Positions 5,338 through 21,423 of a stretch of DNA of 64,000 bases are shown piece by piece. The position numbers and the translations under genes were made by a program. The notes below the pieces were generated by a model. It ran no database searches and was not told the DNA's origin. It was given only the letters and a program-made list of their open reading frames with translations. The DNA comes from Bacillota bacterium. Lineage in GTDB: Bacteria > Bacillota_I > Bacilli_A > ML615J-28 > CAG-698. The DNA is taken from the NCBI GenBank assembly GCA_023410025.1, contig JAEYQM010000086.1, positions 966 to 64,965 on the forward strand. Direction: 5' to 3'. Positions within the stretch are counted from its first letter, which is position 1; each line of letters opens with the position of its first letter.

Positions 5338-6612
5338 ATGATTGATATTAAATTAATAAGAGAAAATGTTGATGATGTTATAGGAAGATTAAATAAAAGA
5401 GGAAAAGACTTTTCTTATTTAAAAGAGATAATTAAATATGATGAAGAAAGAAGAAAAATCCTTGTTAGGGTGGAAGAATTAAAAAACATCCGAAATGAAA
5501 AAAGTAAACTAATTGGTGTTTTAAAAAGAGAAAAGAAAGATGCAACCGAAGTACTAGCAAGTGTAAGTACAATAGGTGATGAAATTGCTGAATTAGATAA
5601 ACAAGTTGCTGAATTTGAAAATAAAATTAACAACATTTTATTATCAACACCAAATCTATTACATGAATCAGTTCCATATGGAAAAGATGAAAAAGATAAT
5701 GTTGAAATAAGAAAGTTTATGGAACCAACTAAATTTAATTTTGAACCAAAAGCCCATTATGAAATTGGTGAAAAATTAGATATCTTAGACTTTGATCGTG
5801 CTGCAAAGATTACTGGAAGTAGATTTGTTGTATATAAAGGATTGGGTGCAAGATTAGAAAGGGCATTAATAGCTTTCATGATGGACTTACATGCTAAAAA
5901 GGGATATACAGAAATCATTCCTCCATATATTGTTAATAGAGCAAGTATGACAGCAACTGGTCAACTTCCAAAATTTGAAGAAGATGCATTTAAATTAGTT
6001 AATGGAAATGGAGACTGGTTCTTGAATCCAACTGCTGAAGTTCCAACAATTAATATGTATCGTGATGAAGTAATTGATTTTGATAAATTACCATTAAAAT
6101 ATTGTAGTTATACAATGGCATTTAGAAGTGAAGCAGGAAGTGCTGGTAGGGATACTAGAGGATTAATTAGAACACATCAATTTAATAAAGTTGAATTAAT
6201 TAAATTTGCTTCAGCAGATAATTCATATGAAGAATTAGAAAAAATGTTACTTGACTCTGAAGAGGTATTAAAATTATTAAAACTTCCATATCATGTAATC
6301 TCATTATGTAGTGGAGATATGGGATTTGGAATGGCAAAAACATATGATATTGAAGTATGGCTACCATCTCAAAAAACATATCGTGAAATTGGTAGTATAA
6401 GTAATGCAGAAGACTATCAAGCAAGAAGAGGAAATATTAGAACTAGACGTACAAAAGACTCTAAATTAGAGTTTGTACATACATTAAATGGCTCAGGACT
6501 TGCGGTAGGTAGAACACTTGTTGCAATATTAGAAAACTATCAAAATGAAGATGGAACAGTTACAGTTCCAGAAGTATTAATCCCATATATGGGTGTAGAA
6601 GTTATTAAATAG
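5338..6612 (+). CDS. serS: Serine--tRNA ligase
   Basis: 424 aa. N-terminal coiled-coil tRNA-binding arm and class II aaRS core motifs ([40 protein letters not shown]). RBS AAGGAG upstream. Confidence 0.95.
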
Positions 6613-8089: not shown

Positions 8090-9478
8090 ATGCGTGAAAT
8101 ATTTATAATTAGTTCAGCAATAATACTATTATTTGTAATATTAATAGTTATTAGCATTATCAAAACCCTATTTATTAAAAATAAAAAAACTAGAATTTTA
8201 AATATAGAAAAAGTAAATAATGATAGATCTGACTTTTATTCACAAAGATTATTAGAACTTATCCAAATTAAAACAACTAGTTATGAAGAAGGTGAAGTAT
8301 ATCATATCTTTCGAGAAAAGATAAAGGAACAGTTTCCTCTAATTCATAAAAATTTTATAAAAGAAAAAATAGGACCAAATGCAATCTTTACATACAATGG
8401 GAACAATAGTACTAATAAATTACTAATTGTAACTCACATTGACACACTAAAAAAAGACAGTGTAGCTAAAATAGAAAATGATGAAATATATGGACCAGGA
8501 ACTTTTGATTCAAAAGCTTTATTGTTTACTGTGATGCAAGCAATTGAAGAACTACTTCAAGAAAAAAAAGATATTAATTTTAACCTTACATTTATGATAA
8601 CTGTTGATGATACAACCACAAAATCAGGAAATGAAAAAGTTGTTGATAAATTCTTACGCCAAGGTACTTTCTTTAAATTAGTTTTAGAGGAGGGAATTGG
8701 AATAATTGAACCAACATATCTAAATATGAAAAGCCACTATGCCTTATTAGGCATAGGGGTTACTGGAGAAGTTAAAATAAGATATAAAATTAATAAAAGT
8801 CGTAGTAAAAATGAATTAATTAATTTTGTTGAAGATATAAGAGTCAATAAAATATTTAAATCAGAAATAGATAAAAACTCATTTAGGGTTTTATCAGAAT
8901 TCTCGAAAGATATGCCATTTTTAAAACGATTATTGTTTGGAAATATTTGGTTATATAAATATTTTGTAAAAAGAATAGTTAATAATAATGTAGAATTTAG
9001 ATTAGCTAAATTATTACGAACATATATTATTTATAATCCAGTATTTGAAGATGAAGATTCGTATTATGTTGATTTTACATTTGAACTTGCTTCCCATGAT
9101 ACAACAGCTGAAATAATTGGTTTAATGAATCCATATGTAATTAAGCACAATGTAAATTTTGAAATTAAAAGTTTAAAAGATCCATCAAAAGTAACAGACA
9201 TAAAGCAATTAGGTTATAAGATTGTTGAAGATACAGTTAAAAAAACATATGATTCGGTATATTCATCACCTTATATAATTACTAAGATTTCCGAACAAAG
9301 AAACCTATCAAGAGTTAGTGATTGTGTTGTTAGATTTTCACCATTATATTATTCAAAAAAAGCATTACTTGATGCTGAAGTTGGAGAAGATCATGTTATG
9401 AAAAAAAGTATTACGCTTGGTGTCGATTTTTATAAAAACCTAATTCAAGATTTCAACATGAAATATAAAAACAAATAA
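8090..9478 (+). CDS. Membrane-anchored M20-family metallopeptidase-like protein
   Basis: 462 aa. N-terminal transmembrane helix. M20-like motifs: THIDT (HxD), GPGTFDSKA (Gly-x-x-Asp metal site), LEEGIG (catalytic/metal Glu-Glu). Family assignment from motifs only. Confidence 0.5.
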   Translation: MREIFIISSAIILLFVILIVISIIKTLFIKNKKTRILNIEKVNNDRSDFYSQRLLELIQIKTTSYEEGEVYHIFREKIKEQFPLIHKNFIKEKIGPNAIFTYNGNNSTNKLLIVTHIDTLKKDSVAKIENDEIYGPGTFDSKALLFTVMQAIEELLQEKKDINFNLTFMITVDDTTTKSGNEKVVDKFLRQGTFFKLVLEEGIGIIEPTYLNMKSHYALLGIGVTGEVKIRYKINKSRSKNELINFVEDIRVNKIFKSEIDKNSFRVLSEFSKDMPFLKRLLFGNIWLYKYFVKRIVNNNVEFRLAKLLRTYIIYNPVFEDEDSYYVDFTFELASHDTTAEIIGLMNPYVIKHNVNFEIKSLKDPSKVTDIKQLGYKIVEDTVKKTYDSVYSSPYIITKISEQRNLSRVSDCVVRFSPLYYSKKALLDAEVGEDHVMKKSITLGVDFYKNLIQDFNMKYKNK

Positions 9479-9503
9479 TTTAGAATAGTATTATATAACG
9501 TTT

Positions 9504-9593
9504 AAAAAAGCCTTAAATTTAACCTAGAATTTGTTTTTGATACTTGTCCAAGTATTTAAATTGACTCAAGGTGAAGTTGATTTAAGGCTTTTT
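9504..9593. terminator. Structured bidirectional terminator between convergent genes
   Basis: Perfect 14-bp inverted repeat AAAAAGCCTTAAAT (9505-9518) / ATTTAAGGCTTTTT (9580-9593) enclosing a 61-nt region with an inner hairpin ATACTTG..CAAGTAT. A-run on the left and T-run on the right. Confidence 0.5.
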
Positions 9594-9598
9594 ATTAT

Positions 9599-9991
9599 TT
9601 ATTGATTAATTTTTAAAAGTAATTCAGAAAATTCTTCTTTTGTTAATGTATTTGATTTAAAATTAATAGAAAAATTATCATTATTATATCTAGGAACAAT
9701 ATGAAAATGAAAGTGGTGAACAGTTTGTCCTGCAAGTTCCCCACAGTTGTTAATAATATTAAAATCTGTTATACCTAAAGTTTTACTAAGTTTTTTAGTA
9801 ACTAATGTTAAAATTCTAAAAATATCAGATTTTGGATCCATATCTAAAATATTACTATAATGATTTTTTGGAATAACTAAGGTATGTCCAATTGTAGCTT
9901 GAGAAATATCTAAGAAAGCTAAAAAGTTATTATCTTCATAAACCTTATATGATGGAATTTCATTATTAATTATCTTACAAAAAATACACAT
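9599..9991 (-). CDS. HIT (histidine triad) family nucleotide hydrolase
   Basis: 130 aa from the internal ATG at 9991 (MCIFCKIINNE...). Histidine triad HHFHFHIVPR. RBS AGGTGA 6 nt upstream. The longer track ORF (to 10390) runs through the divergent promoter and overlaps the + strand gene, so the short start is preferred. Confidence 0.85.
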   Translation of the reverse strand: MCIFCKIINNEIPSYKVYEDNNFLAFLDISQATIGHTLVIPKNHYSNILDMDPKSDIFRILTLVTKKLSKTLGITDFNIINNCGELAGQTVHHFHFHIVPRYNNDNFSINFKSNTLTKEEFSELLLKINQ

Positions 9992-10054
9992 TTTAATCAC
10001 CTCTATTAAATTATATATCAAAAAAGTAAAAATGTAAACTAGACTTTTTTGTCG

Positions 10055-10083
10055 TTGATATTTATACTTTCCTATGGTATAAT
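10055..10083 (+). promoter_or_regulatory. Sigma-A type promoter (TTGATA-17-TGgTATAAT)
   Basis: -35 TTGATA at 10055-10060, 17-nt spacer, extended -10 TGGTATAAT at 10075-10083. Upstream of the 10110 membrane-protein gene. Confidence 0.55.
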
Positions 10084-10109
10084 CAAAATATATAAAAGGG
10101 TATGGCGTT

Positions 10110-10613
10110 ATGAAAGACACAAAAAAAATTGTATTATTAGCGGTACTAACATCATTAGCTATAGTTTTAAGCCTTATTGATAAGGTAGTAACACCAATGG
10201 TTTTTCCATTCTTACCAACAGCGAAAATTGGTTTTGCTAATGTAATAGTAGTTTTAGTATTATACACATATAATTTTAAAGAAACATTAACACTTGTAAC
10301 TATAAAGATACTAATTGCAAATTTATTATTTGGTGGTATTACTTCTTTTATTATTGGTGGTAGTGCATCAATTACTAGTTTTCTTTCCATGTATGCAATA
10401 TATATAGTATTTAAAGATAAAGTCTCAGCAATTGGTATTAGTGCAGTTGGTGGTTTTGTTCATGTAATGGTACAACTTTTTGTTTCAAAATTCTATTATG
10501 GAATTAATGATGCAATTATGTATTATGGTTCTTTATTAATAGTTGTATCTTTAGTAAGTGGAGTAATAATTGGTTTTATTGGTAATAAACTAATAACTTA
10601 TTTAAAAATATAA
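10110..10613 (+). CDS. Small polytopic membrane protein, possibly Gx-transporter / heptaprenyl-diphosphate-synthase-component-I-like
   Basis: 167 aa, about 5 predicted transmembrane helices, Gly-rich helices (GGITSFIIGGSASITSF). Family guess from size and topology only. Confidence 0.4.
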   Translation: MKDTKKIVLLAVLTSLAIVLSLIDKVVTPMVFPFLPTAKIGFANVIVVLVLYTYNFKETLTLVTIKILIANLLFGGITSFIIGGSASITSFLSMYAIYIVFKDKVSAIGISAVGGFVHVMVQLFVSKFYYGINDAIMYYGSLLIVVSLVSGVIIGFIGNKLITYLKI

Positions 10614-10653
10614 AAAACTTGTCATTGCAATAAAATGCAAAGGCAAGTTTTTA
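10614..10653. terminator. Bidirectional intrinsic terminator
   Basis: AAAACTTG ... CAAGTTTT outer stem with inner TTGCA/TGCAA stem. Flanked by A-run and T-run. Lies between convergent gene ends. Confidence 0.55.
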
Positions 10654-10654
10654 T

Positions 10655-11044
10655 TTATTTTGCAAGTTTTCTAAATGGATAATCGTAATTAATTTCTTCA
10701 TCAAATGTAATGTAATCAAGGTAAATTGTAAGAAGTAAATAACGCATTTCTGAATTTAAATCTTTAAGAATAATATGGTCTTTTCCAGCAGCAAGTAATA
10801 CTCCTTTAAATATTTTTGATCCCCACTGACTATTCTCAAAATTCATATAAACACTAGCAACTTTTCCAATATTAAGCCTCAAAATGTTTTCAATATATGA
10901 TGATTCAGCTTGAGAGGCAATTTGTGCTAGCGGGTCAGTAATACCAGGTAACAATTGAGGCATCAATTGCGGAACCTGAGCAAGCATTTGTTGTTGACAT
11001 TGTGCAGGGTTATACCCCATATAATATGGTTGAAAATAATTCAT
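10655..11044 (-). CDS. gerQ: Spore coat protein GerQ
   Basis: Q/P-rich N-terminus and a conserved C-terminal GerQ-like block (YIENILRLNIGKVASVYMNFENSQWGSKIFKGVLLAAGKDHIILKD...YLDYITFDEEINY). Immediately downstream of cwlJ as in Bacillus. Start chosen at MNYFQ with RBS AGGAGG; the alternative start at 11062 overlaps cwlJ. Confidence 0.75.
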   Translation of the reverse strand: MNYFQPYYMGYNPAQCQQQMLAQVPQLMPQLLPGITDPLAQIASQAESSYIENILRLNIGKVASVYMNFENSQWGSKIFKGVLLAAGKDHIILKDLNSEMRYLLLTIYLDYITFDEEINYDYPFRKLAK

Positions 11045-11052
11045 AAATCCTC

Positions 11053-11481
11053 CTAATAACAATTTTCACTTTCAACAGGTGAATAAAAACAATGGGATTT
11101 AAATTTTCCCGAATTCCATTGATTAAACCATTGTGCTTGGCAATCGCCAGTTGTTGCATAAAACCAAAGTGATCTTTGGGCAGGTGAGAATTTCTCTCCT
11201 TTAATTACTCTACGAGCTAATTTAATATCAACTTCTCGTGCTGGTTGATAAAAATATGAGTAAAGAGTTGATTCAAATCCACCCGGTCTTTGAAACACCA
11301 TTTGCTCAATAGATCTTATATCAATAAAATCTAAACAATTTGCAAGAACTCTATTAATTCCAACATTACCCACTAAGAGCATTCCAAGTTGCCCATCACT
11401 TTCAGCTTCAGCACGCATAAGTCTAGCAAGTAGCTTAACTTCTGCCTCATTGTATTTCACAACGCTCATACCCCACCCCAT
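11053..11481 (-). CDS. cwlJ: Spore cortex-lytic cell wall hydrolase CwlJ/SleB family
   Basis: 142 aa Hydrolase_2-like domain (LARLMRAEAESDGQLGMLLVGNVGINRV...QRPGGFES). RBS GGGGTGGGGT. Forms cwlJ-gerQ pair. Confidence 0.85.
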   Translation of the reverse strand: MGWGMSVVKYNEAEVKLLARLMRAEAESDGQLGMLLVGNVGINRVLANCLDFIDIRSIEQMVFQRPGGFESTLYSYFYQPAREVDIKLARRVIKGEKFSPAQRSLWFYATTGDCQAQWFNQWNSGKFKSHCFYSPVESENCY

Positions 11482-11576
11482 TAAATTATATTAAGGCTTT
11501 TAATAAATATGTGTTAAAAATGAAAAATTTGTGATAGAATAAATATATAAAAATATATGGTAAAGTAGGGGATTAT

Positions 11577-12785
11577 ATGAAATTTGAATTTATACACTGT
11601 GGAGATTTACATCTAGGATGTTATCCAAATCATTTAGAAGAAAGATTTAATGACTTTTTTACTGCCTTTAATAATGTTATAGATTATGCAATTACTAACC
11701 AAATTTATGTTGTATTAATTGCTGGGGATTTATTTCATTTAAAAAATATAAATTCAAGAACATTACAAAGATCAATTGAGATTTTTAATAAAGCAAAAGA
11801 TCATAATATTGAAATTATAGCAATTGAAGGGAATCATGACAGGGCTTTTTATATTGATGAAGAAAGCTGGTTATATTTCTTAAATAAACAAAATTATATT
11901 AAATTACTACAAGTCGATGTAAATGATGGGAAAATTGAATATAATCCATATAATGGCATAAGCGGTAGTGTATTAGAAACAGATGATTACCGAATAGTTG
12001 GTTTAGGATATGTTGGTGGGTCAACAGAAACATATATAACAGAACTAAAAAAAGCATTAAAACCGTCTAAAAAATTTACAATAGTTATGATGCATGCAGC
12101 TGTAAATAGATTAGGTGGACAAGATATGGGTGATATCAAAAAAGAAGTCTTAAATAATCTAAAGGACTGTGTTAATTATATAGCTTTAGGACATATTCAT
12201 AATCGTTATGAATATGATAATTTTATCTATAACCCTGGATCTTTAGAAAATATAAGAATTAAAGATGGAATTAATTCTACACAAAAAGGATTCTATCATG
12301 TTAGTGTAGAAGATATGAAAAAAGAAATTAAATTTATTGAATCAAACCCAAGGAAAATTCATGATATTTCTATTAATGTTACCGGTATTAATACCCCAAC
12401 TGAAATTGAACAATTAGTACTAAATAAAGAATATGAGTTCAAAGATTTAGATATGGTATGTCTTAGATTATATGGAAAAGTAAACTTTAATCCATATCAA
12501 ATATCTACTGATATAGCAACAAAGATTAAAGAAAAATATAATCTATTACATATTGAATTTTCAAATAACATAAATATAGAAACAACAAATAAAAAAAGTG
12601 AAGAAACAATTAATGTTGATGAATTAATTAAAGATTATATTAAAGAAGATATAAATATTAATTTTCCTACTGTTGATGATCAAGATAAGATTGCAAAAGG
12701 GATGATTGATTTAGCTGATGAAATCATTGATGGAAAAAAAGAAGACTTAATTGAAAAATTATTAAAAATGGAAGTGAAATTATGA
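11577..12785 (+). CDS. sbcD: DNA repair exonuclease SbcD (Mre11-like metallophosphoesterase)
   Basis: Calcineurin-like motifs CGDLHLG, GDLFH, GNHD, HIHN. Translationally coupled to sbcC. Confidence 0.9.
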   Translation: MKFEFIHCGDLHLGCYPNHLEERFNDFFTAFNNVIDYAITNQIYVVLIAGDLFHLKNINSRTLQRSIEIFNKAKDHNIEIIAIEGNHDRAFYIDEESWLYFLNKQNYIKLLQVDVNDGKIEYNPYNGISGSVLETDDYRIVGLGYVGGSTETYITELKKALKPSKKFTIVMMHAAVNRLGGQDMGDIKKEVLNNLKDCVNYIALGHIHNRYEYDNFIYNPGSLENIRIKDGINSTQKGFYHVSVEDMKKEIKFIESNPRKIHDISINVTGINTPTEIEQLVLNKEYEFKDLDMVCLRLYGKVNFNPYQISTDIATKIKEKYNLLHIEFSNNINIETTNKKSEETINVDELIKDYIKEDININFPTVDDQDKIAKGMIDLADEIIDGKKEDLIEKLLKMEVKL

Positions 12786-15640
12786 TTATAAATAAAATCA
12801 TATTAGAAAATATAAAATCGTATAAATATGAAGAAATTGATTTTAGTGAAGGTATAAACTGTATTCTTGGCTTAAATGGTAGTGGAAAATCAACTATCAT
12901 TGAAAGTATTGGAATTGGTTTATTTAACTTTGTAAAAAGTTCAACAATATCCTCTGTTTTAAGATATAATGAAACTAAGGGAAGTATAGAAATAATCTTT
13001 ACAGCAAATGATGAAAGAATGTATAAAGTTGTAAGAACAATTAGACCAAAAGCTAATACAGTAAAGATATATGATTATGAAAAAAATATAGAATTATACA
13101 ACAATGTTAATGATGTATATTCCTTTATAAGAAATGTCTTAAAGATTAAAAAGACAAGAGATTTCAATCGTTTGTTTGAACAAGTTTTAGCCGTTCCTCA
13201 AGGGCAATATGTAAATTCATTTTTAGAGAAACCAAGTACAAGAAAAGAAACATTTGATAGACTATTTGACTTACATATTTACAAAGAAATATCAGACAAA
13301 GTTAAAGGTTTAAATGATGAAATCCAAAAAGAAAAAATTGCAAAAGTTAAAGAAGAAATCAAACTAATTGAAGGCCAAATTATTAACTTTGATGAAGAAA
13401 CTCAAAAGGGTAAAAAAATAGAGTTACAATTATTAGAATTAAATGAAAAACAAACAAGATTAGATAATGAATTTAATACAAATTTAATTTTTAAAAGAAA
13501 ATTAGAAGAGTTAAAATTTAATTTGGAAAATGCAAAAAATTCTAAAATAATTAATGAAACCAAACTTTCAAGTTATTTAAGTGAAAAATCAAGAGTAACT
13601 GAACTTTTAAATTCTTCTTTAAGATCGAAAGTTATTGTTGAAGAGAATTTATCTAAATATATGGAATATGAAAATAATATAGAGATAATTAGAGAACTTG
13701 AGATAAAAATAAAAAGAAATCAAAAACTTGAAGAAGAAAATCAAATAATTATTAAAAATATTGAATTAATTGAAAAAGATTTAGATAATATTTATTCAAA
13801 CAAACAAGATAAAGAAAAAATACTTGATCAATATAAAAAACAACTTGAAGAAATATTTAATGATACATATCTTCAAAAATTTAAACTTGAAGAAAATCAA
13901 AAAAAATACGAACTAGATAAAAAAGAATTTGAAAAAAATTTAGAAGATAATAACAAAATTATTTCGTTATTAAATGAAAAAATTAAAGATATTCAAATGT
14001 ATCAAGAAAGGTTAATTGATACAGATTATTTATTAATAGATAATGGCACAAATGATGTAAATCAATTAGAAAAAATTGATTTAGAATTAAAGCAAGTTGA
14101 TGGGATTATTGAACAAATTAATGAACTTAAAAAAGAATTAAATAAAGTTGAAAATCAAAGACAAATAAATTTTAATAATTCAAAAAGCACTCAAAATGGT
14201 TTATGTCCATTCTTAAATCAAAAGTGTAAGAATATTAATGAAGAATCTTTAAATTCCCATTTTGAAGATTTAATTAATGATAACGATATAAGAATTACTC
14301 AACTAGTTAATGAAATTGATTTTTTAGATAAAAAAACATTTAATAGAAAGCATTTAATTGAAGAAAAAAATAATATTCAAAATAAGATTAATTTGTATCA
14401 AAATGACTTAGATAGAAGAAACAAAATAATTAATCAGTTTAAATCTAAATATTTAGAATTGATGGATGAAGGTTTAACTATTAATGATAATATTAAAAAT
14501 ATATTAACTGATTTAGAAACTAAACTTAATCAAAAAAATAATTTAGCTTTAGAACTTAATTCAAAAAAAGATTATTTAATAAAACTAAGAACAGAAAATG
14601 ATTCACAAATTTTTCAAATCAATTTAAAAGAAAAGAATGCCAAGGATTTACAGTTAAAAATAAAAGATCTAGAAAAAGAAATTGATGAATTAACTTTAAA
14701 AATTAATCTATTAAAAAGAACAAAAGAAGAAACAATAAAATCAAAAAAAGTTATTGAAGAAAAACTATCAAGTAATAATAAAGATAAAGAAAGCCTTGAA
14801 AAACTTAAAACTGCAAATCAAAGTTTAATTCAATATCGAGACTTATATACAGTTAATTTTGAAAAATCCAAGGAAGTAGATAAATACGAAAAATCAGCTC
14901 AAGAATTTAATAAAATAACTTCAGAACTAGAAATAAAAATTGAGGAACTAAAAAATCAAATCGATGTATTAAATGCTGAGTATTCAATTGAAAAATATAA
15001 TGAAACATTAAAAATTCATGAAAATTTAATTAAAAACATTTCCGAAAACAAAGCAATAATGGAAGAAAAAAATAAGCAATTAAAAGAAATAAAAGAAAAA
15101 ATTGAATTTATGCTAATACTAAAAGAAGAGTTAAAAGTAAATCAAAACAAGTTAGATAGTTACCAAAATTCTGTAAAATTTCTTTCATATATGCGTGATA
15201 TTTATAATCGACTTCCTCAAGAATTATCAAAGAGATATCGTGAGTATGTAGCATATATGGCAACAAATTCATATAGAGCTATTTCAAATGAATTAGTACA
15301 TATTGAAATTCAAGATGATTATGGAATATCTCTAATTGATGATAAAAATCCAAAGAACATTAAAACTATAGATCAACTTAGTGGTGGTGAACAAATGAGT
15401 GTAGCTCTTTCTGTTAGATTTGCAATGCTTAAACAATTATCAGGATTAGATATATATTTCTTGGATGAACCAACAATAAACTTAGATTTTCAAAGAAGAA
15501 CAAATATAGCTGATGTAGTACTAGAGATATCTCAAGAGTTAAGTCAAATGTTTGTTATCAGTCATGATGATACATTTGATGATATAACCGAAAGAGTTAT
15601 TAAAATCGAAAAAGAGGAAAATATAAGTAGAGTTAAGTAA
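12782..15640 (+). CDS. sbcC: DNA repair ATPase SbcC (Rad50-like)
   Basis: 952 aa. Walker A LNGSGKST, long K/E/N-rich coiled coil with central Cys hook region (CPFLNQKCK), signature LSGGE, Walker B FLDEPT. Confidence 0.9.
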   Translation: MIINKIILENIKSYKYEEIDFSEGINCILGLNGSGKSTIIESIGIGLFNFVKSSTISSVLRYNETKGSIEIIFTANDERMYKVVRTIRPKANTVKIYDYEKNIELYNNVNDVYSFIRNVLKIKKTRDFNRLFEQVLAVPQGQYVNSFLEKPSTRKETFDRLFDLHIYKEISDKVKGLNDEIQKEKIAKVKEEIKLIEGQIINFDEETQKGKKIELQLLELNEKQTRLDNEFNTNLIFKRKLEELKFNLENAKNSKIINETKLSSYLSEKSRVTELLNSSLRSKVIVEENLSKYMEYENNIEIIRELEIKIKRNQKLEEENQIIIKNIELIEKDLDNIYSNKQDKEKILDQYKKQLEEIFNDTYLQKFKLEENQKKYELDKKEFEKNLEDNNKIISLLNEKIKDIQMYQERLIDTDYLLIDNGTNDVNQLEKIDLELKQVDGIIEQINELKKELNKVENQRQINFNNSKSTQNGLCPFLNQKCKNINEESLNSHFEDLINDNDIRITQLVNEIDFLDKKTFNRKHLIEEKNNIQNKINLYQNDLDRRNKIINQFKSKYLELMDEGLTINDNIKNILTDLETKLNQKNNLALELNSKKDYLIKLRTENDSQIFQINLKEKNAKDLQLKIKDLEKEIDELTLKINLLKRTKEETIKSKKVIEEKLSSNNKDKESLEKLKTANQSLIQYRDLYTVNFEKSKEVDKYEKSAQEFNKITSELEIKIEELKNQIDVLNAEYSIEKYNETLKIHENLIKNISENKAIMEEKNKQLKEIKEKIEFMLILKEELKVNQNKLDSYQNSVKFLSYMRDIYNRLPQELSKRYREYVAYMATNSYRAISNELVHIEIQDDYGISLIDDKNPKNIKTIDQLSGGEQMSVALSVRFAMLKQLSGLDIYFLDEPTINLDFQRRTNIADVVLEISQELSQMFVISHDDTFDDITERVIKIEKEENISRVK

Positions 15641-15705
15641 AATTATTTTACTTTTAAAGCATGGTTTGATATAATACTATGTTAATCTGTTAATCGAGGA
15701 AAGAT

Positions 15706-16653
15706 ATGTATAAAAAATTAAATGAAATAATTCAAAAGTACAACAGAATAATCATACATAGACATTATCGACCTGATGGAGATGCCATTGGAAGTCAGAT
15801 AGGTCTAAAAGAAATCCTAAAGGATAACTTTCCAAATAAAGAAATTTATGCCGTTGGTGATGAAAATGACTTATTCACATTTATTGGTAGAGTAGATGAA
15901 ATTTGCGATGATTTATATAAAGGATCATTAGTCATAGTAGTAGATTCTGGTGCTGAAAAACTAATAAGTGACCTGCGCTACAAAAATGCAGATTATTTAG
16001 TTAAAATAGATCACCATTCTTCAGGATCAAGCTATGGAGATTTAAACATTGTTGATACAAGTGAGATAAGTTGTGCTAGTTTGATAGCTAATATATTTTA
16101 TAGTTTAGGTTATAAAATAAATAAGCAAGCTTCATATGCATTATTTAGTGGACTTGTAAGTGATAGTAATCGTTTCTTTTATGCCGGGGTTAACCAAAAA
16201 ACATTTTTGGTGGCTTACAAATTAATGGAAACAGGGATAGATATTCAAGATATATATAGAAATTTATATACAGAAGATTATGAATTTGTTAAACTTAAAG
16301 CACAGTTCATATTATCTATTCAAAAGACTCAAAATGGTGTTGCTTATATAAAAACAACATATGAAAAATTTAAAGAATATAATATTGATTTCTTCTTTGT
16401 ATCAAGAGGATTAGTTAATTCAATGAGTGGAATAAAAGGAATTGATATTTGGGTTAACTTTACTGAAGATGAATCTGGAATAGTTCATGCGGAATTAAGA
16501 TCAACTAAATATAATATTAACCCTATTGCTGTAAAATATGGAGGTGGAGGTCACAAATTAGCAAGTGGTGCTGCACTAGTAGGTTTTGAGGCAGCCGATG
16601 CAATGCTTAATGATTTAGACCAATTAATAATGGAGGATAAAAATGGACGTTAA
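15706..16653 (+). CDS. nrnA: DHH/DHHA1 phosphoesterase, NrnA-like (nanoRNase/pAp phosphatase)
   Basis: Motifs IIIHRHYRPDGDAIGS, DHH (KIDHHSS), DHHA1 GGGH. Confidence 0.85.
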   Translation: MYKKLNEIIQKYNRIIIHRHYRPDGDAIGSQIGLKEILKDNFPNKEIYAVGDENDLFTFIGRVDEICDDLYKGSLVIVVDSGAEKLISDLRYKNADYLVKIDHHSSGSSYGDLNIVDTSEISCASLIANIFYSLGYKINKQASYALFSGLVSDSNRFFYAGVNQKTFLVAYKLMETGIDIQDIYRNLYTEDYEFVKLKAQFILSIQKTQNGVAYIKTTYEKFKEYNIDFFFVSRGLVNSMSGIKGIDIWVNFTEDESGIVHAELRSTKYNINPIAVKYGGGGHKLASGAALVGFEAADAMLNDLDQLIMEDKNGR

Positions 16654-17791
16654 AGAAACTATAAAAAAAATAAAAGACACAGTAACAAGTAGTGAAACAT
16701 ATGATCAAGTTACACAAGCAATTAATAGTGTAACAGATATAGCTAATAAAATTAAAGCAGAAGGGCTTCAAGATACAGTAACAGATATAATTAATGATTC
16801 TAATCTAAAAAAGGATGAATATTATGATATCAAAAAAGCAATTCTTGATAAAATAAAAGCATATAATACAATAATTATTCATCGTCATGTTAGTCCTGAT
16901 GGAGATGCTTTTGGAAGTGCATACGGATTAAGAGAAATGTTAAGAACGTCATTTCCTGAAAAGAAAGTATTAGCAGTTGGAAGTGATACTGTTGAATACT
17001 TAAAATTTATGGGTGAAGATGATCAAGTAACTGAAGAAGATTATAAAGATGCCTTAGTCATTATCTTAGATACTGCTGATTCAAAAAGAATTAGTGGAAA
17101 ACTATACAATACAGGTAAAGAAACAATTAAAATTGATCACCACTTAAGAGTTGAAGATTATGCAAATCTAAACTATGTAAGAGAAGAAATGCCAGCAACA
17201 GCAATTGTCTTAATAGACTTCTATAACACATTCCCTAAAGAATTAAAGATTTCTTCACAAGGAGCAATGTTTTTATATTTAGGTACAGTAACTGATACAG
17301 GCAGATTTAGATATAGTTCAGTGAATGGTCAAACATTAAGACTTGCTGGAACAATGTTAGATAAGGGCTTTGATACAGAAAGAATGTATGCAAATCTAAA
17401 CCTAAAAGAAAAAGAATCAATGAAGTTAACGGGATATGTACTAAATAACTTCAAAATGACTGAAAATGGTGTATGTTACATATATTTAAGTAAGAGAATT
17501 CAAAAGAAATTTAAAGTTGGTACTGAAGAAGCAACTGCTCAAGTAAATGTAATGGACAGTGTAAAAGGTGGGCTTATATGGATTTTATTTGTTGAATTCG
17601 ATAATATTATCAGGGTAAGACTTCGCTCACGATTCATTGGTGTAAATGACATTGCAAGACAATTCAATGGTGGTGGACATATGCAAGCAAGTGGTGCAAG
17701 TGTTAAGAATAAGAAAGAAATGAAAAAAATGATTGATATGGCTGATGAAGCTTTAAAAATATATAAAGAAGAACATAAGGATGTAAAGTGA
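16643..17791 (+). CDS. Second DHH/DHHA1 phosphoesterase (NrnA paralog) with ~70-aa N-terminal extension
   Basis: IIIHRHVSPDGDAFGS, KIDHH, GGGH. Overlaps the upstream gene by 11 nt and surE start by 1 nt. Confidence 0.85.
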   Translation: MDVKETIKKIKDTVTSSETYDQVTQAINSVTDIANKIKAEGLQDTVTDIINDSNLKKDEYYDIKKAILDKIKAYNTIIIHRHVSPDGDAFGSAYGLREMLRTSFPEKKVLAVGSDTVEYLKFMGEDDQVTEEDYKDALVIILDTADSKRISGKLYNTGKETIKIDHHLRVEDYANLNYVREEMPATAIVLIDFYNTFPKELKISSQGAMFLYLGTVTDTGRFRYSSVNGQTLRLAGTMLDKGFDTERMYANLNLKEKESMKLTGYVLNNFKMTENGVCYIYLSKRIQKKFKVGTEEATAQVNVMDSVKGGLIWILFVEFDNIIRVRLRSRFIGVNDIARQFNGGGHMQASGASVKNKKEMKKMIDMADEALKIYKEEHKDVK

Positions 17792-18492
17792 TGCGTATTT
17801 TAATTGCAAACGATGATGGAGTAAATTCAGAAGGTATTTTAATTCTTGCTAATGCGGCAAAAAAATTTGGGGAAGTTATAGTAGTTGCCCCACTAACAGA
17901 ACAGTCAGCAAAAAGTCATGCAATAACTATTAGAAGTGGAATGACTTATCATGAAATGTCTGATATTACTGAAGGTGTGAAAACATATGCACTAGAAGCA
18001 TCTCCCGCTGACTGTGTAAGATTTGCTAAATACTATTTAAATGATGAATATGATATTGTATTTTCAGGAATAAACAATGGATTTAACCTTGGAGAAGATA
18101 TCTTATATTCTGGAACAGTTGGAGCAGCAAGTGAAGGAGTATTAACTAAAGCAAAAGCTATTGCCTTTTCAACAAAACACAACAATTTTCAATATGCAAA
18201 AAATTGGATTGATCAAACTATTGAATATATATTTACAAATAAACTATTAGATAAAACTGATCTATTGAATGTAAATATTCCTTTAGAACCTAAAGGAATT
18301 AAAATTACTAAACAAGGTACAACAAACTTTCAAACTCACTTTACATATCAAGAAGGTATGGTATGGCAAAAAGGAAAACCGGACTTTTCATTAGATAAAG
18401 ATATTGATAGTGATGTAAAAGCGGTAAATGATGGATATATATCAATAAGTCCATTAACTGTTGATAGAACTGATCATAAGTTTTTTAGTTAA
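17791..18492 (+). CDS. surE: 5'/3'-nucleotidase SurE
   Basis: N-terminal MRILIANDDG signature of SurE. ATG at 17791 preferred over the track's GTG at 17788. Confidence 0.9.
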   Translation: MRILIANDDGVNSEGILILANAAKKFGEVIVVAPLTEQSAKSHAITIRSGMTYHEMSDITEGVKTYALEASPADCVRFAKYYLNDEYDIVFSGINNGFNLGEDILYSGTVGAASEGVLTKAKAIAFSTKHNNFQYAKNWIDQTIEYIFTNKLLDKTDLLNVNIPLEPKGIKITKQGTTNFQTHFTYQEGMVWQKGKPDFSLDKDIDSDVKAVNDGYISISPLTVDRTDHKFFS

Positions 18493-18538
18493 TACATAAT
18501 TTAAAATTCATACTCATATAATTATATGAGGTGGTAGC

Positions 18539-18718
18539 ATGAAATTTATTAAATGGTTATTTAAATCTTTACTTATATCCCTAGTATTAATATTTGTTAT
18601 TAATATAGTAGGTGTTTATATAGGTATCAATATTCCGGTAAATGTATGGACAATCTTAATCATAGCCTTATTTAGACTTCCCGGTGCAATTATACTAATA
18701 ATATTTTTCATGCTATAA
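18539..18718 (+). CDS. Small hydrophobic protein (59 aa, 2 predicted transmembrane helices), not in ORF track
   Basis: ATG preceded by RBS GAGGTGG at 18528-18534. Translation MKFIKWLFKSLLISLVLIFVINIVGVYIGINIPVNVWTILIIALFRLPGAIILIIFFML. Below the track's 60-aa cutoff. Confidence 0.45.
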   Translation: MKFIKWLFKSLLISLVLIFVINIVGVYIGINIPVNVWTILIIALFRLPGAIILIIFFML

Positions 18719-18725
18719 ATTTTTC

Positions 18726-18754
18726 TTGATAAATTTACAAATATAGGATACAAT
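18726..18754 (+). promoter_or_regulatory. Sigma-A promoter of rpoE (TTGATA-17-TACAAT)
   Basis: -35 TTGATA at 18726-18731, 17-nt spacer, -10 TACAAT at 18749-18754. 22 nt upstream of RBS GGAGG. Confidence 0.6.
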
Positions 18755-18776
18755 GTATACATATTGGAGGAATAAT

Positions 18777-19370
18777 ATGGGTGAAATAAACAATGAATCT
18801 TTATTAGAGATTGCAGTTAATTTGATGAAATCAAAGAAAAAACCTAAATCATTAAAAGAAATAACTAATGAAGTGTTCCAAGTAAAAGGTAATGAATCTT
18901 TAGATGATATCGCGGAACAAAAGGCGCAATTTCAAGTAGATTTTATGGTTAGTGGATTTTTTGTTTGCTGTGGCGAAAACACAAAAGGGCAAACATTATG
19001 GGATTTAAAATCACGTCAACCTTCAACACTAAATGATAAAGATGGAAACTATGATGATTTATATGCTGATGACGAAGATGTAATCAAAAACGAACTAAAA
19101 GAAGATATTTTCGAAGTCCCTGGATTTAAAGAATCTGTTAATTTGATTGATGATGACATTGAAGAAGATGATTTAGAACATGATGAAATCGAAGAAGAAT
19201 TGAATCTTGTTGATGATGCTGACGAAGAAATTGAACCAGATATCGAAATAGATGTTGATGCTGAAGAAGAAGATGAAATCACAGAAAAATTAGCATCGGA
19301 ATTATTATTAGATGATGAAGAAGATACTGAAGAAGAATTAGATGATATTGAAGAAGCATTAAAAAAATAA
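18777..19370 (+). CDS. rpoE: DNA-directed RNA polymerase subunit delta
   Basis: N-terminal HARE-HTH-like domain (LLEIAVNLMKSKKKPKSLKEI...) and long acidic D/E-rich C-terminal tail. Directly upstream of pyrG as in Bacillus. Start at ATG 18777 after GGAGG. Confidence 0.85.
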   Translation: MGEINNESLLEIAVNLMKSKKKPKSLKEITNEVFQVKGNESLDDIAEQKAQFQVDFMVSGFFVCCGENTKGQTLWDLKSRQPSTLNDKDGNYDDLYADDEDVIKNELKEDIFEVPGFKESVNLIDDDIEEDDLEHDEIEEELNLVDDADEEIEPDIEIDVDAEEEDEITEKLASELLLDDEEDTEEELDDIEEALKK

Positions 19371-19388
19371 GCAATAGCTTATTTTTTT
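19365..19388 (+). terminator. Intrinsic terminator after rpoE
   Basis: AAATAAGC-AATA-GCTTATTT stem-loop followed by TTTTT. Confidence 0.6.
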
Positions 19389-19404
19389 CAAATAAGGTGA
19401 TAAA

Positions 19405-19731
19405 ATGATAATTAATTTTAATGAAATAAAACCGAGTACAGTTGAAAAGATGCGTGGTGGTGAAAAACAAGCTTCGCTTAATCGATTAGATATCGATAAT
19501 AAGATGATAGCAAGAATAACTTTAGAACCATCATCTTCAATTGGTTATCACACACATGTTGAAGATGAAGAAATAATATATATTATTTCTGGTCAAGGAA
19601 AATGTATTGATAATGGAGTGGAAACACAAATTTATGAAGGACAAGTTAACTATATTCCAAGAGGAAAAAGTCACAGCATAATCAATAATTCAAATAAAGA
19701 TTTAGTATTATTAGCAATTATATATAAGTAA
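19405..19731 (+). CDS. Cupin-domain protein
   Basis: 108 aa. Cupin motifs G(Y)HTH(V)EDEE...G and a second conserved His (GKSHSIIN). RBS AAGGTGA. Confidence 0.6.
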   Translation: MIINFNEIKPSTVEKMRGGEKQASLNRLDIDNKMIARITLEPSSSIGYHTHVEDEEIIYIISGQGKCIDNGVETQIYEGQVNYIPRGKSHSIINNSNKDLVLLAIIYK

Positions 19732-19747
19732 AAAAATTAAAAAAAAC

Positions 19748-19819
19748 TTGATAAATATAAAATAAATGCTATAATAAACAAGAGCCCAAAAAGTTCTCTT
19801 TAAAAAGAGAACTTTTTTT
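19748..19819 (+). promoter_or_regulatory. pyrG promoter (TTGATA-16-TGcTATAAT) plus leader terminator/attenuator hairpin
   Basis: -35 at 19748-19753, extended -10 at 19767-19775. Perfect 11-bp stem AAAGTTCTCTT/AAGAGAACTTT (19790-19815) with a 4-nt loop and T-run, ending 3 nt before the RBS AGGAG. Confidence 0.55.
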
Positions 19820-19824
19820 ATTAG

Positions 19825-21423
<1,599 letters not shown>

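Follow-up and report, generated by a model that had tools for sequence, protein, structure and literature searches.

Does a nuclease and ATPase pair related to Mre11 and Rad50 form one functional unit with the three genes that follow it? The question is raised by positions 11577-18492 of a stretch of 64,000 nucleotides (nt) of the Bacillota bacterium contig JAEYQM010000086.1, referred to here as the window. In this locus, the pair precedes two genes for stand-alone DHH-DHHA1 phosphoesterases, called DHH1 and DHH2, and surE, which encodes a 5'/3'-nucleotidase. The original prediction for this DNA described the five genes as sbcD, sbcC, two nrnA paralogs and surE, joined in a single operon leading from a DNA end to nucleosides. 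Its five + strand genes, with their order, coordinates, spacing and domain content, are all borne out by the open reading frames (ORFs), by Pfam and by reading of the gene junctions. The arrangement is best understood as two adjacent transcription units, with a probability of about 0.7: the Mre11/Rad50 pair (11577-15640) and a DHH1-DHH2-surE triad operon with its own predicted promoter (15706-18492), possibly reaching bofA, the products of which would convert oligonucleotides to nucleosides. As part of this reading, and with the same probability, the adjacency of the pair and the triad represents synteny inside one Bacilli clade of metagenome-assembled genomes (MAGs), and comparative data separate the two units.

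The triad is far more widespread than the five-gene arrangement. One genome per GTDB species was scanned with an alignment of DHH1 homologs, which yielded at least 584 confirmed relatives; the best 80 loci were kept, and their neighbourhoods were examined by tblastn of all window proteins. In 74 of these 80 species-level loci, the order DHH1, DHH2, SurE is unchanged and the three genes share a strand. Three of the remaining six are cut by contig ends, and three (L056, L058 and L076) lack an adjacent SurE; surE follows DHH2 in 74/77 evaluable loci. Every DHH1 in the sample with enough flanking sequence has DHH2 immediately downstream. The hosts are Bacilli, "Acholeplasmataceae" and "Mollicutes" MAGs and many Clostridia (Oscillospiraceae, Acutalibacteraceae, Christensenellaceae, Faecousia and others). 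In the window, DHH1 and DHH2 overlap by 11 nt (16643-16653) behind a GGAGG ribosome-binding site, and DHH2 and surE share one nucleotide in a TGATG junction at 17791. Across 87 loci, DHH1 and DHH2 are joined most commonly by a 4-nt overlap (32 loci), otherwise at -1, -8 or -11 nt, and the DHH2/surE junction overlaps by 4 nt in 53 loci and by 1 nt in 19. On this genomic record, the triad is a strongly conserved and, to judge from its junctions, translationally coupled operon. Thousands of metagenome protein clusters also match DHH1. A further protein search seeded with a Christensenellaceae DHH1 returned just unnamed or MAG proteins and no cultured triad host.

The rival explanation that survives best, though an unlikely one, treats all five genes as one module in which the internal promoter is an extra. 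Mre11/Rad50 would cut DNA ends or hairpins, the DHH pair would degrade the products to mononucleotides, filling the role that YhaM has downstream of SbcF/SbcE in B. subtilis, and SurE would release nucleosides. The idea draws on the common strand of all five genes, the gap of just 65 nt with its weak hairpin in the window, and the retention of the adjacency in L003, L010, L090 and L093 despite 43-60% protein identity. The B. subtilis yhaONM operon offers a precedent (PMC2731908, PMC2811018), and in other lineages, too, the triad has genes for proteins acting on nucleic acids nearby, namely a FEN-like exonuclease and a lipoprotein of the SNase-like kind. It has to be weighed against the distribution of the linkage. 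Among the 80 species-level triad loci, L010 alone has a Rad50-like gene upstream of DHH1, and the triad stands without Mre11/Rad50 in the other 79, close relatives included. Further linked relatives come from metagenomes (L003, L088, L090 and L093) and form, together with L010, one Bacilli MAG clade. In the close relatives L008, L011 and L013, cwlJ/gerQ directly adjoin DHH1 with no Rad50 between them, and in the linked relative L088, a gene for a 687-aa (amino acid) GH18 glycoside hydrolase (13062-15125, + strand) is inserted at the junction between the Rad50-like gene and DHH1. To judge from these gene orders, the pair is a cassette that members of one clade have or lack at the upstream border of the triad.

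The converse comparison, starting from the nuclease, gives the same picture. Mre11 homologs with 43-60% identity are still linked to the triad (L003, L090/L091 and L093). No DHH or SurE gene adjoins the homologs with at most 39% identity, which come from the 4.3-Mb genome L092 and from about 75 metagenome loci; the metagenome loci were obtained by a scan with an Mre11 alignment, are mostly distant relatives and serve as a negative control for the linkage. Outside the clade, Mre11/Rad50 homologs never adjoin DHH or SurE. Within it, the whole neighbourhood is syntenic, from gyrB, gyrA, serS and HIT via gerQ and cwlJ to bofA, rpoE and a cupin gene. Because of this synteny, the retained adjacency needs no functional reason, which is a further point against a five-gene module. 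The linkage to sbcC, absent from 79/80 triad genomes, is nevertheless kept in one Bacilli MAG clade, so that it is not absent everywhere.

A boundary between the two units is also indicated by a predicted promoter in the gap between Rad50 and DHH1 (15641-15705). A promoter scan places its -35 element, TTTACT, at 15647-15652 and, after a 17-nt spacer, an extended -10 element, TGATATAAT, at 15667-15675. It matches the consensus at 10/12 positions and carries the additional TG, and it is situated 31 nt before the start codon of DHH1. When the 130 nt upstream of DHH1 were aligned for the window and 13 related loci, TGNTATAAT was found exactly in 13/14 loci and with a single mismatch in the other, 20-35 nt upstream of DHH1. 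It is kept whichever gene lies upstream, be it Rad50, cwlJ, heptaprenyl diphosphate synthase component I, HIT or GH18. The whole window contains 19 TGNTATAAT sites, ten of which (for example those at 10075, 15667, 19767, 28786, 32777, 55523 and 59113) fall in the 5.7% of the sequence that is non-coding, each of the ten being situated 13-53 nt upstream of a start codon on the same strand. TGNTATAAT is consequently a good promoter indicator in this genome. With a linkage in 1/80 triad loci and in none of the approximately 75 distant Mre11-like loci, and with a predicted promoter conserved at every locus examined, the claim of a single five-gene operon is not upheld.

Terminators in related genomes point in the same direction. 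Between the Rad50 stop codon and the promoter, L010, L090 and L093, that is, 3/5 linked relatives with the window excluded, have canonical terminators, in which a T-run comes after a stem that contains G+C (-11.9 to -14.4 kcal/mol). The view that neither a promoter nor a terminator separates sbcC from the first DHH gene is thus not supported, given a predicted promoter in the gap and predicted terminators in three linked relatives. The related statement that no terminator occurs until after surE agrees with a terminator consensus scan of 10300-20000, in which none was found; the scan is uninformative on this point, however, since it detected no + strand terminator after surE either, and it did not pick up the hairpin of the window. 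In L093, the Rad50-DHH1 gap (126 nt, 5506-5633) contains a strong terminator and then two TGNTATAAT elements, TGTTATAAT and TGGTATAAT; this duplication suggests putative tandem promoters for the triad.

Several points weigh against the division into two units and against the function proposed for the second. No convincing terminator follows Rad50 in the window (-4.8 kcal/mol) or in L003, where a hairpin of -3.2 kcal/mol precedes eight U residues. Co-transcription of all five genes is for this reason possible in the window, and there may be some read-through from Rad50 into DHH1 in this genome. All promoters and terminators mentioned here are predictions from sequence. The adjacency persists at just 43-60% Mre11 identity, which is longer than a random adjacency usually lasts. 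The yhaO-yhaN-yhaM operon of B. subtilis serves as a precedent in which a nuclease pair of this kind is joined to an exonuclease acting on small oligonucleotides (PMC2731908). The mechanism proposed for the triad is drawn from family functions and gene neighbours, and both DHH proteins score below the 350-bit cut-off of the NCBIfam NrnA model NF053633 (DHH1 239.4 bits, DHH2 223.4 bits).

The two DHH proteins are 36% identical to each other, and both reach about 200-225 bits against B. subtilis NrnA and its close homologs among solved structures. The top PDB match of DHH1 is B. subtilis NrnA 5j21 (204 bits); those of DHH2 are the NrnA entries 8iu7, 3dev and 5j21. When 85 orthologs of DHH1 and 83 of DHH2 were aligned with B. 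subtilis NrnA, the numbering of which is used here, H20, D24, D26, D80, D102, H103, H104, D156 and G281-H284 (GGGH) proved invariant in both groups. The difference lies in the R-x-R-x-R motif, the residues of which contact the substrate backbone and the 5'-phosphate (PMC9779919, PMC9757072). All 83 DHH2 orthologs have Arg at R262, R264 and R266. All 85 DHH1 orthologs have Glu at R264 and Arg at R266, and they carry L, V, I or A at R262 (His in the window protein). The motif of the window proteins accordingly reads H-A-E-L-R in DHH1, which lacks R-x-R-x-R, and R-V-R-L-R in DHH2, which retains it. DHH1 is, as far as alignment can tell, a diverged NrnA paralog with an invariant Glu that is specific to it.

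The grouping of the paralogs is based on identity statistics and average-linkage clustering of 169 sequences, which give no root and no timing of the duplication. Identity is about 58% inside each DHH group and 36% between them, and B. subtilis NrnA clusters weakly with DHH2. The duplication seems to be old, as the groups are clean. DHH2 of the window is extended at its N-terminus by about 55 aa (16643-16835), a stretch rich in Lys, Asp and Thr and presumably helical, which is restricted to the window lineage and L003 (382 aa) and partial in L010 (352 aa). Most DHH2 orthologs are 326-328 aa long; L005, for example, has no extension and a length of 327 aa.

SurE scores 174.8 bits against TIGR00087, above the cut-off of 135.1 bits, and its N-terminus, MRILIANDDG, contains the NDDG motif with the metal-binding DD. 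A sequence of reactions may then be proposed for the triad. With R-x-R-x-R available for the 5'-phosphate and the backbone, DHH2 would act as a canonical 5'-3' nanoRNase that cleaves 2-4-mers to 5'-nucleoside monophosphates (5'-NMPs). DHH1, in which the catalytic motifs are intact and Glu replaces the central Arg, would act on a different small phosphodiester or phosphomonoester substrate, such as oligonucleotides without a 5'-phosphate, deoxy-oligonucleotides, pAp or pApA. SurE would dephosphorylate the resulting 5'- or 3'-NMPs to nucleosides. Of the route from a DNA end to nucleosides that had been proposed for the whole locus, the part covered by the last three genes, from short oligonucleotides via mononucleotides to nucleosides, is thus plausible, given the conserved coupled operon and its neighbours in Clostridia. 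The five genes do not, however, appear to be one dedicated module, given the conserved predicted promoter and a linkage confined to one clade.

The neighbours in question were identified by inspecting the triad flanks in 73 Clostridia-type loci. The genes 3' of the triad are mostly convergent in these loci, which indicates that the operon ends at surE. Upstream, an HD/HD_assoc gene resembling deoxynucleoside triphosphate (dNTP) triphosphohydrolases is directly joined on the same strand in 12/73 loci, with a gap of -20 to +20 nt (L029, L035, L040, L041, L045, L055, L062, L068, L072, L074, L076 and L082). In four loci, this place is taken by a PNP_UDP_1 nucleoside phosphorylase gene, also on the same strand, at a distance of 1-6 nt (L016, L042, L066 and L081); in several of these four, the phosphorylase gene is present once more, about 2.3 kb upstream. 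A FEN-like 5'-3' exonuclease gene is often divergent from the triad. Tightly joined partners of this kind fit a role of the triad in nucleotide or nucleoside catabolism or salvage, and they contrast with the Mre11/Rad50 pair, which is separated from the triad by a predicted promoter.

A further cluster is convergent with the triad in about 27 Clostridia loci, 1.4-6 kb downstream of surE (e.g. L048, 7143-8552, - strand). Its genes encode a surface protein of very large size, a lipoprotein with an SNase domain, and the solute-binding protein and permease of an ABC transporter. This cluster may be a system for extracellular nucleic-acid degradation and uptake, or mere lineage synteny.

A more far-reaching proposal, which is possible but doubtful, is that DHH1 represents a new functional class of stand-alone DHH-DHHA1 proteins. 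Such a class would be marked by the invariant Glu and by strict pairing with a canonical NrnA-type gene, surE coming next in 74/77 evaluable loci. DHH1 could then be an obligate partner of DHH2, possibly in a heterodimer, with a non-NrnA substrate such as a 5'-OH oligonucleotide, a deoxy-oligonucleotide or a specific dinucleotide.

The second rival explanation assigns the triad mainly to signalling or by-product nucleotides. One DHH protein would act on cyclic di-AMP (c-di-AMP) or pApA, like CnpB, Pde2 and the Thermotoga maritima phosphodiesterase TmPDE, or on pAp, like CysQ, and SurE would clear the AMP. DHH1 indeed scores higher than DHH2 against TmPDE/TM1595 (112.7 versus 94.2 bits), the first two arginines are missing from the motif of TmPDE as well (H, S, R), and specialised NrnA-like paralogs are known in the form of CnpB and the pGpG-specific PggH (PMC12709177, PMC9757072). 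Both paralogs are, however, nearest to B. subtilis NrnA, which leaves c-di-AMP uncleaved (PMC9757072). Compared with the approximately 200 bits obtained for this enzyme, the entries 5xsi/5xt3, described as "Phosphodiesterase acting on cyclic dinucleotides", give 53 and 35 bits and CnpB/Rv2837c gives 62 and 54 bits; DHH2 scores 31 bits against the cyclic-di-AMP phosphodiesterase 9n0l. The operon partners in Clostridia (the dNTPase-like protein and the nucleoside phosphorylase) belong to general nucleotide catabolism, and no cyclase or receptor gene was seen among them. A signalling role is therefore improbable, even more so than a five-gene module.

The Mre11/Rad50 pair itself differs from what the name SbcCD implies. 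The nuclease reaches 43 bits against SbcD (TIGR00619, cut-off 77.65 bits) and the ATPase 66.9 bits against SbcC (TIGR00618, cut-off 478.5 bits), and the best NCBIfam matches of both proteins are archaeal Mre11 and Rad50 models, which score higher yet also remain under their equivalog cut-offs. The assignment of the two genes as sbcD and sbcC was thus not confirmed in this form. The top PDB sequence matches are Pyrococcus furiosus Mre11 (1ii7) for the nuclease and Methanocaldococcus jannaschii Rad50 for the ATPase; E. coli SbcD and SbcC are not among the PDB sequence matches of the pair. An AlphaFold2 model of the nuclease (pLDDT, the predicted local distance difference test, 87.3) also found archaeal Mre11 on top in a fold search of the PDB, with 26-27% identity, as opposed to 18-19% for Staphylococcus aureus SbcD and 14% for E. 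coli SbcD. Its similarity to Mre11 folds has a probability of 1.00 and a TM-score (template modelling score) of 0.63-0.75. Mre11 phosphoesterase motifs I-V are present, which places the protein in this superfamily, and the catalytic residues D10/H12, D51, N86/H87, H173 and H206/H208 are invariant across 22 Mre11-like homologs. The pair resembles archaeal Mre11/Rad50 more than it does SbcCD of E. coli, for which reason "SbcCD" is a loose name. It presumably processes DNA ends and hairpins, as members of its family do.

The Rad50-like ATPase has a Walker A motif (GLNGSGKST), a signature motif (LSGGE) and a Walker B motif (YFLDEP) on either side of a long coiled coil. At its apex, the coiled coil lacks a CxxC zinc hook and carries a C-x6-C hook in its place, CPFLNQKC in the window (region 14150-14260, motif GLCPFLNQKCKN). 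The consensus G-x-C-P-[FIL]-L-x3-C is kept in 8/9 homologs, down to about 25-28% identity, and L094 has Phe instead of Pro (C-F-I-L-x3-C). This hook may mark a separate subfamily of Rad50/SbcC proteins, one that is possibly akin to SbcE of B. subtilis.

Other readings of the locus were set aside. An anti-phage defence system was rejected: PADLOC gave just generic ABC-ATPase similarity for Rad50 (mad3, LmuB and AriA) and nothing meaningful for the DHH proteins or SurE. A riboswitch or leader RNA in the gap was likewise discarded, as a search of 9000-21000 with Rfam at permissive thresholds returned one chance match to a long non-coding RNA (lncRNA) and none in the gap. SOS regulation in the manner of yhaONM finds no basis either, there being no LexA box (CGAACN4GTTCG, with up to two mismatches) near 11482-11576, and this lack of a LexA box upstream also counts against a five-gene module.

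The features of the locus are compiled in the following table.

Table. Genes and predicted signals at the Mre11/Rad50 and DHH1-DHH2-surE locus (window positions).
Feature	Position	Strand	Details
Possible extended -10 element TGaTAGAAT before the Mre11-like gene	11532-11540	+	Spotted by eye; promoter scan silent
Mre11-family metallophosphoesterase nuclease	11577-12785	+	402 aa; Pfam Metallophos; "SbcD" of the original prediction
Rad50/SbcC-family ABC ATPase with long coiled coil	12782-15640	+	952 aa; Pfam AAA_23 and SMC_N
Weak AT-rich hairpin across the Rad50 stop codon	15622-15656	+	-4.8 kcal/mol
Predicted sigma-70 promoter of DHH1-DHH2-surE	15647-15675	+	TTTACT, 17 nt, TGaTATAAT; promoter scan
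DHH1, stand-alone DHH-DHHA1 phosphoesterase	15706-16653	+	315 aa; Pfam DHH and DHHA1
DHH2, stand-alone DHH-DHHA1 phosphoesterase	16643-17791	+	382 aa; Pfam DHH and DHHA1
SurE 5'/3'-nucleotidase	17791-18492	+	233 aa from ATG at 17791; Pfam SurE, 6.8e-51
BofA-family small membrane protein	18539-18718	+	59 aa; Pfam PF07441, 1.1e-11; not in the ORF list
rpoE promoter-like site, 3' of bofA	18726-18754		Promoter scan

G+C content in the region is low (about 22-30%), and the genes of the Mre11/Rad50 pair overlap by 4 nt (ATGA, 12782-12785). The surroundings include gyrBA and serS as well as the sporulation genes gerQ, cwlJ-like and bofA. The latter begins 46 nt past the end of surE, is found at the equivalent position in L090 and is possibly the last gene of the triad unit, with which it may be co-transcribed, or else a separate gene. 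An 18-nt AT palindrome overlaps its ribosome-binding site. Proteins of the BofA family inhibit pro-sigma-K processing. A near-identical strain is represented by the ENA metagenome contig ERZ27268920 k141_15372 (L001), the proteins of which are 99-100% identical to those of the window. Upstream of the pair, a 263-aa HIT ORF (9599-10390, - strand) overlaps the gene for heptaprenyl diphosphate synthase component I (10110-10613, + strand). According to the gene calls made for the near-identical contig, HIT begins about 133 codons later and encodes a protein of 130 aa; the long ORF is an upstream-extension artefact.

Databases call both DHH genes "NrnA", although DHH1 systematically lacks two of the three presumed substrate-recognition arginines. 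Reviews of the nanoRNase field consider it probable that specialised NrnA paralogs are still to be discovered, and they describe annotation as unreliable (PMC12709177, PMC9757072). Two paralogs that share an operon and diverge at a defined motif offer a clean natural case for studying the part of R-x-R-x-R in substrate choice. If DHH1 were a new class, the triad would be an unrecognised and widespread operon for terminal nucleic-acid degradation in Clostridia and basal Bacilli. A pipeline from SbcCD to nucleosides, if real, would newly connect the processing of DNA ends with nucleotide salvage, but this claim is largely not confirmed, and the evidence favours synteny of the neighbourhood. No account of the triad, of the Glu-containing paralog or of the linkage to sbcC was found in the open-access literature searched, which is absence of evidence only. 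The triad will interest above all those who work on RNA and nucleotide turnover; it represents a variation within a known enzyme family.

Compared with known systems, the pair shares with the archaeal and Thermotoga Mre11-Rad50 complexes and with E. coli SbcCD the metallophosphoesterase motifs, the capping domain and the C-terminal helical Rad50-binding region of the nuclease, the Walker A/B and signature motifs and long coiled coil of the ATPase, and the overlap of the two genes. It differs from them in that it has a C-P-x-L-x3-C hook instead of CxxC and lies under the SbcC and SbcD cut-offs, and its nuclease is nearer to archaeal Mre11 in sequence and fold than to SbcD of E. coli or S. aureus. 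SurE, which passes TIGR00087 and has the NDDG motif, shows no difference from known SurE proteins; what is unusual is its conserved operon position directly behind two NrnA paralogs.

Both DHH proteins share with B. subtilis NrnA (YtqI; 5j21, 5ipp), a nanoRNase and pAp phosphatase, the DHH+DHHA1 architecture, all DHH motifs and GGGH. NrnA is their best or near-best solved relative, and DHH2 also keeps its R-x-R-x-R. In contrast to the single gene of B. subtilis, there are tandem paralogs here, in an operon with surE; DHH1 has a hydrophobic-x-Glu-x-Arg motif, DHH2 the extension of about 55 aa, and both lie under the NCBIfam NrnA cut-off. DHH1 also resembles T. maritima TM1595 (TmPDE, 5o25), a dinucleotide-preferring enzyme, in being a stand-alone DHH-DHHA1 protein in which the first two arginines are absent (H-x-S-x-R in TmPDE). 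Variation at R-x-R-x-R was thus already known. TmPDE differs in having Ser where DHH1 has its invariant Glu, and DHH1 matches it with 113 bits, compared with 204 bits for B. subtilis NrnA.

A known parallel to the locus as a whole is the yhaO(sbcF)-yhaN(sbcE)-yhaM operon of B. subtilis, which belongs to the SOS regulon and encodes an Mre11/Rad50-like pair followed by an exonuclease that degrades 5-mers, YhaM preferring DNA 5-mers (PMC2731908, PMC2811018). The original prediction compared the arrangement only with addAB-sbcDC and missed this precedent; owing to yhaO-yhaN-yhaM, the idea of coupling is not without precedent. SbcF/SbcE (YhaO/YhaN) is a second such pair in B. subtilis that also lacks CxxC (PMC2811018). 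Common to both loci are an SbcD-like nuclease, an SMC-like ATPase of about 950 aa without CxxC and, next on the same strand, an exonuclease for short oligonucleotides (PMC2811018, PMC2731908), the likeness of the window pair resting on the length of about 950 aa and the lack of CxxC (PMC2811018). The downstream enzyme in B. subtilis is, however, the HD/OB-fold protein YhaM and not a DHH protein. That operon is regulated by LexA, whereas no LexA box was found upstream of the window pair, and the two units of the window are separated by a predicted promoter and, in relatives, also by a terminator.

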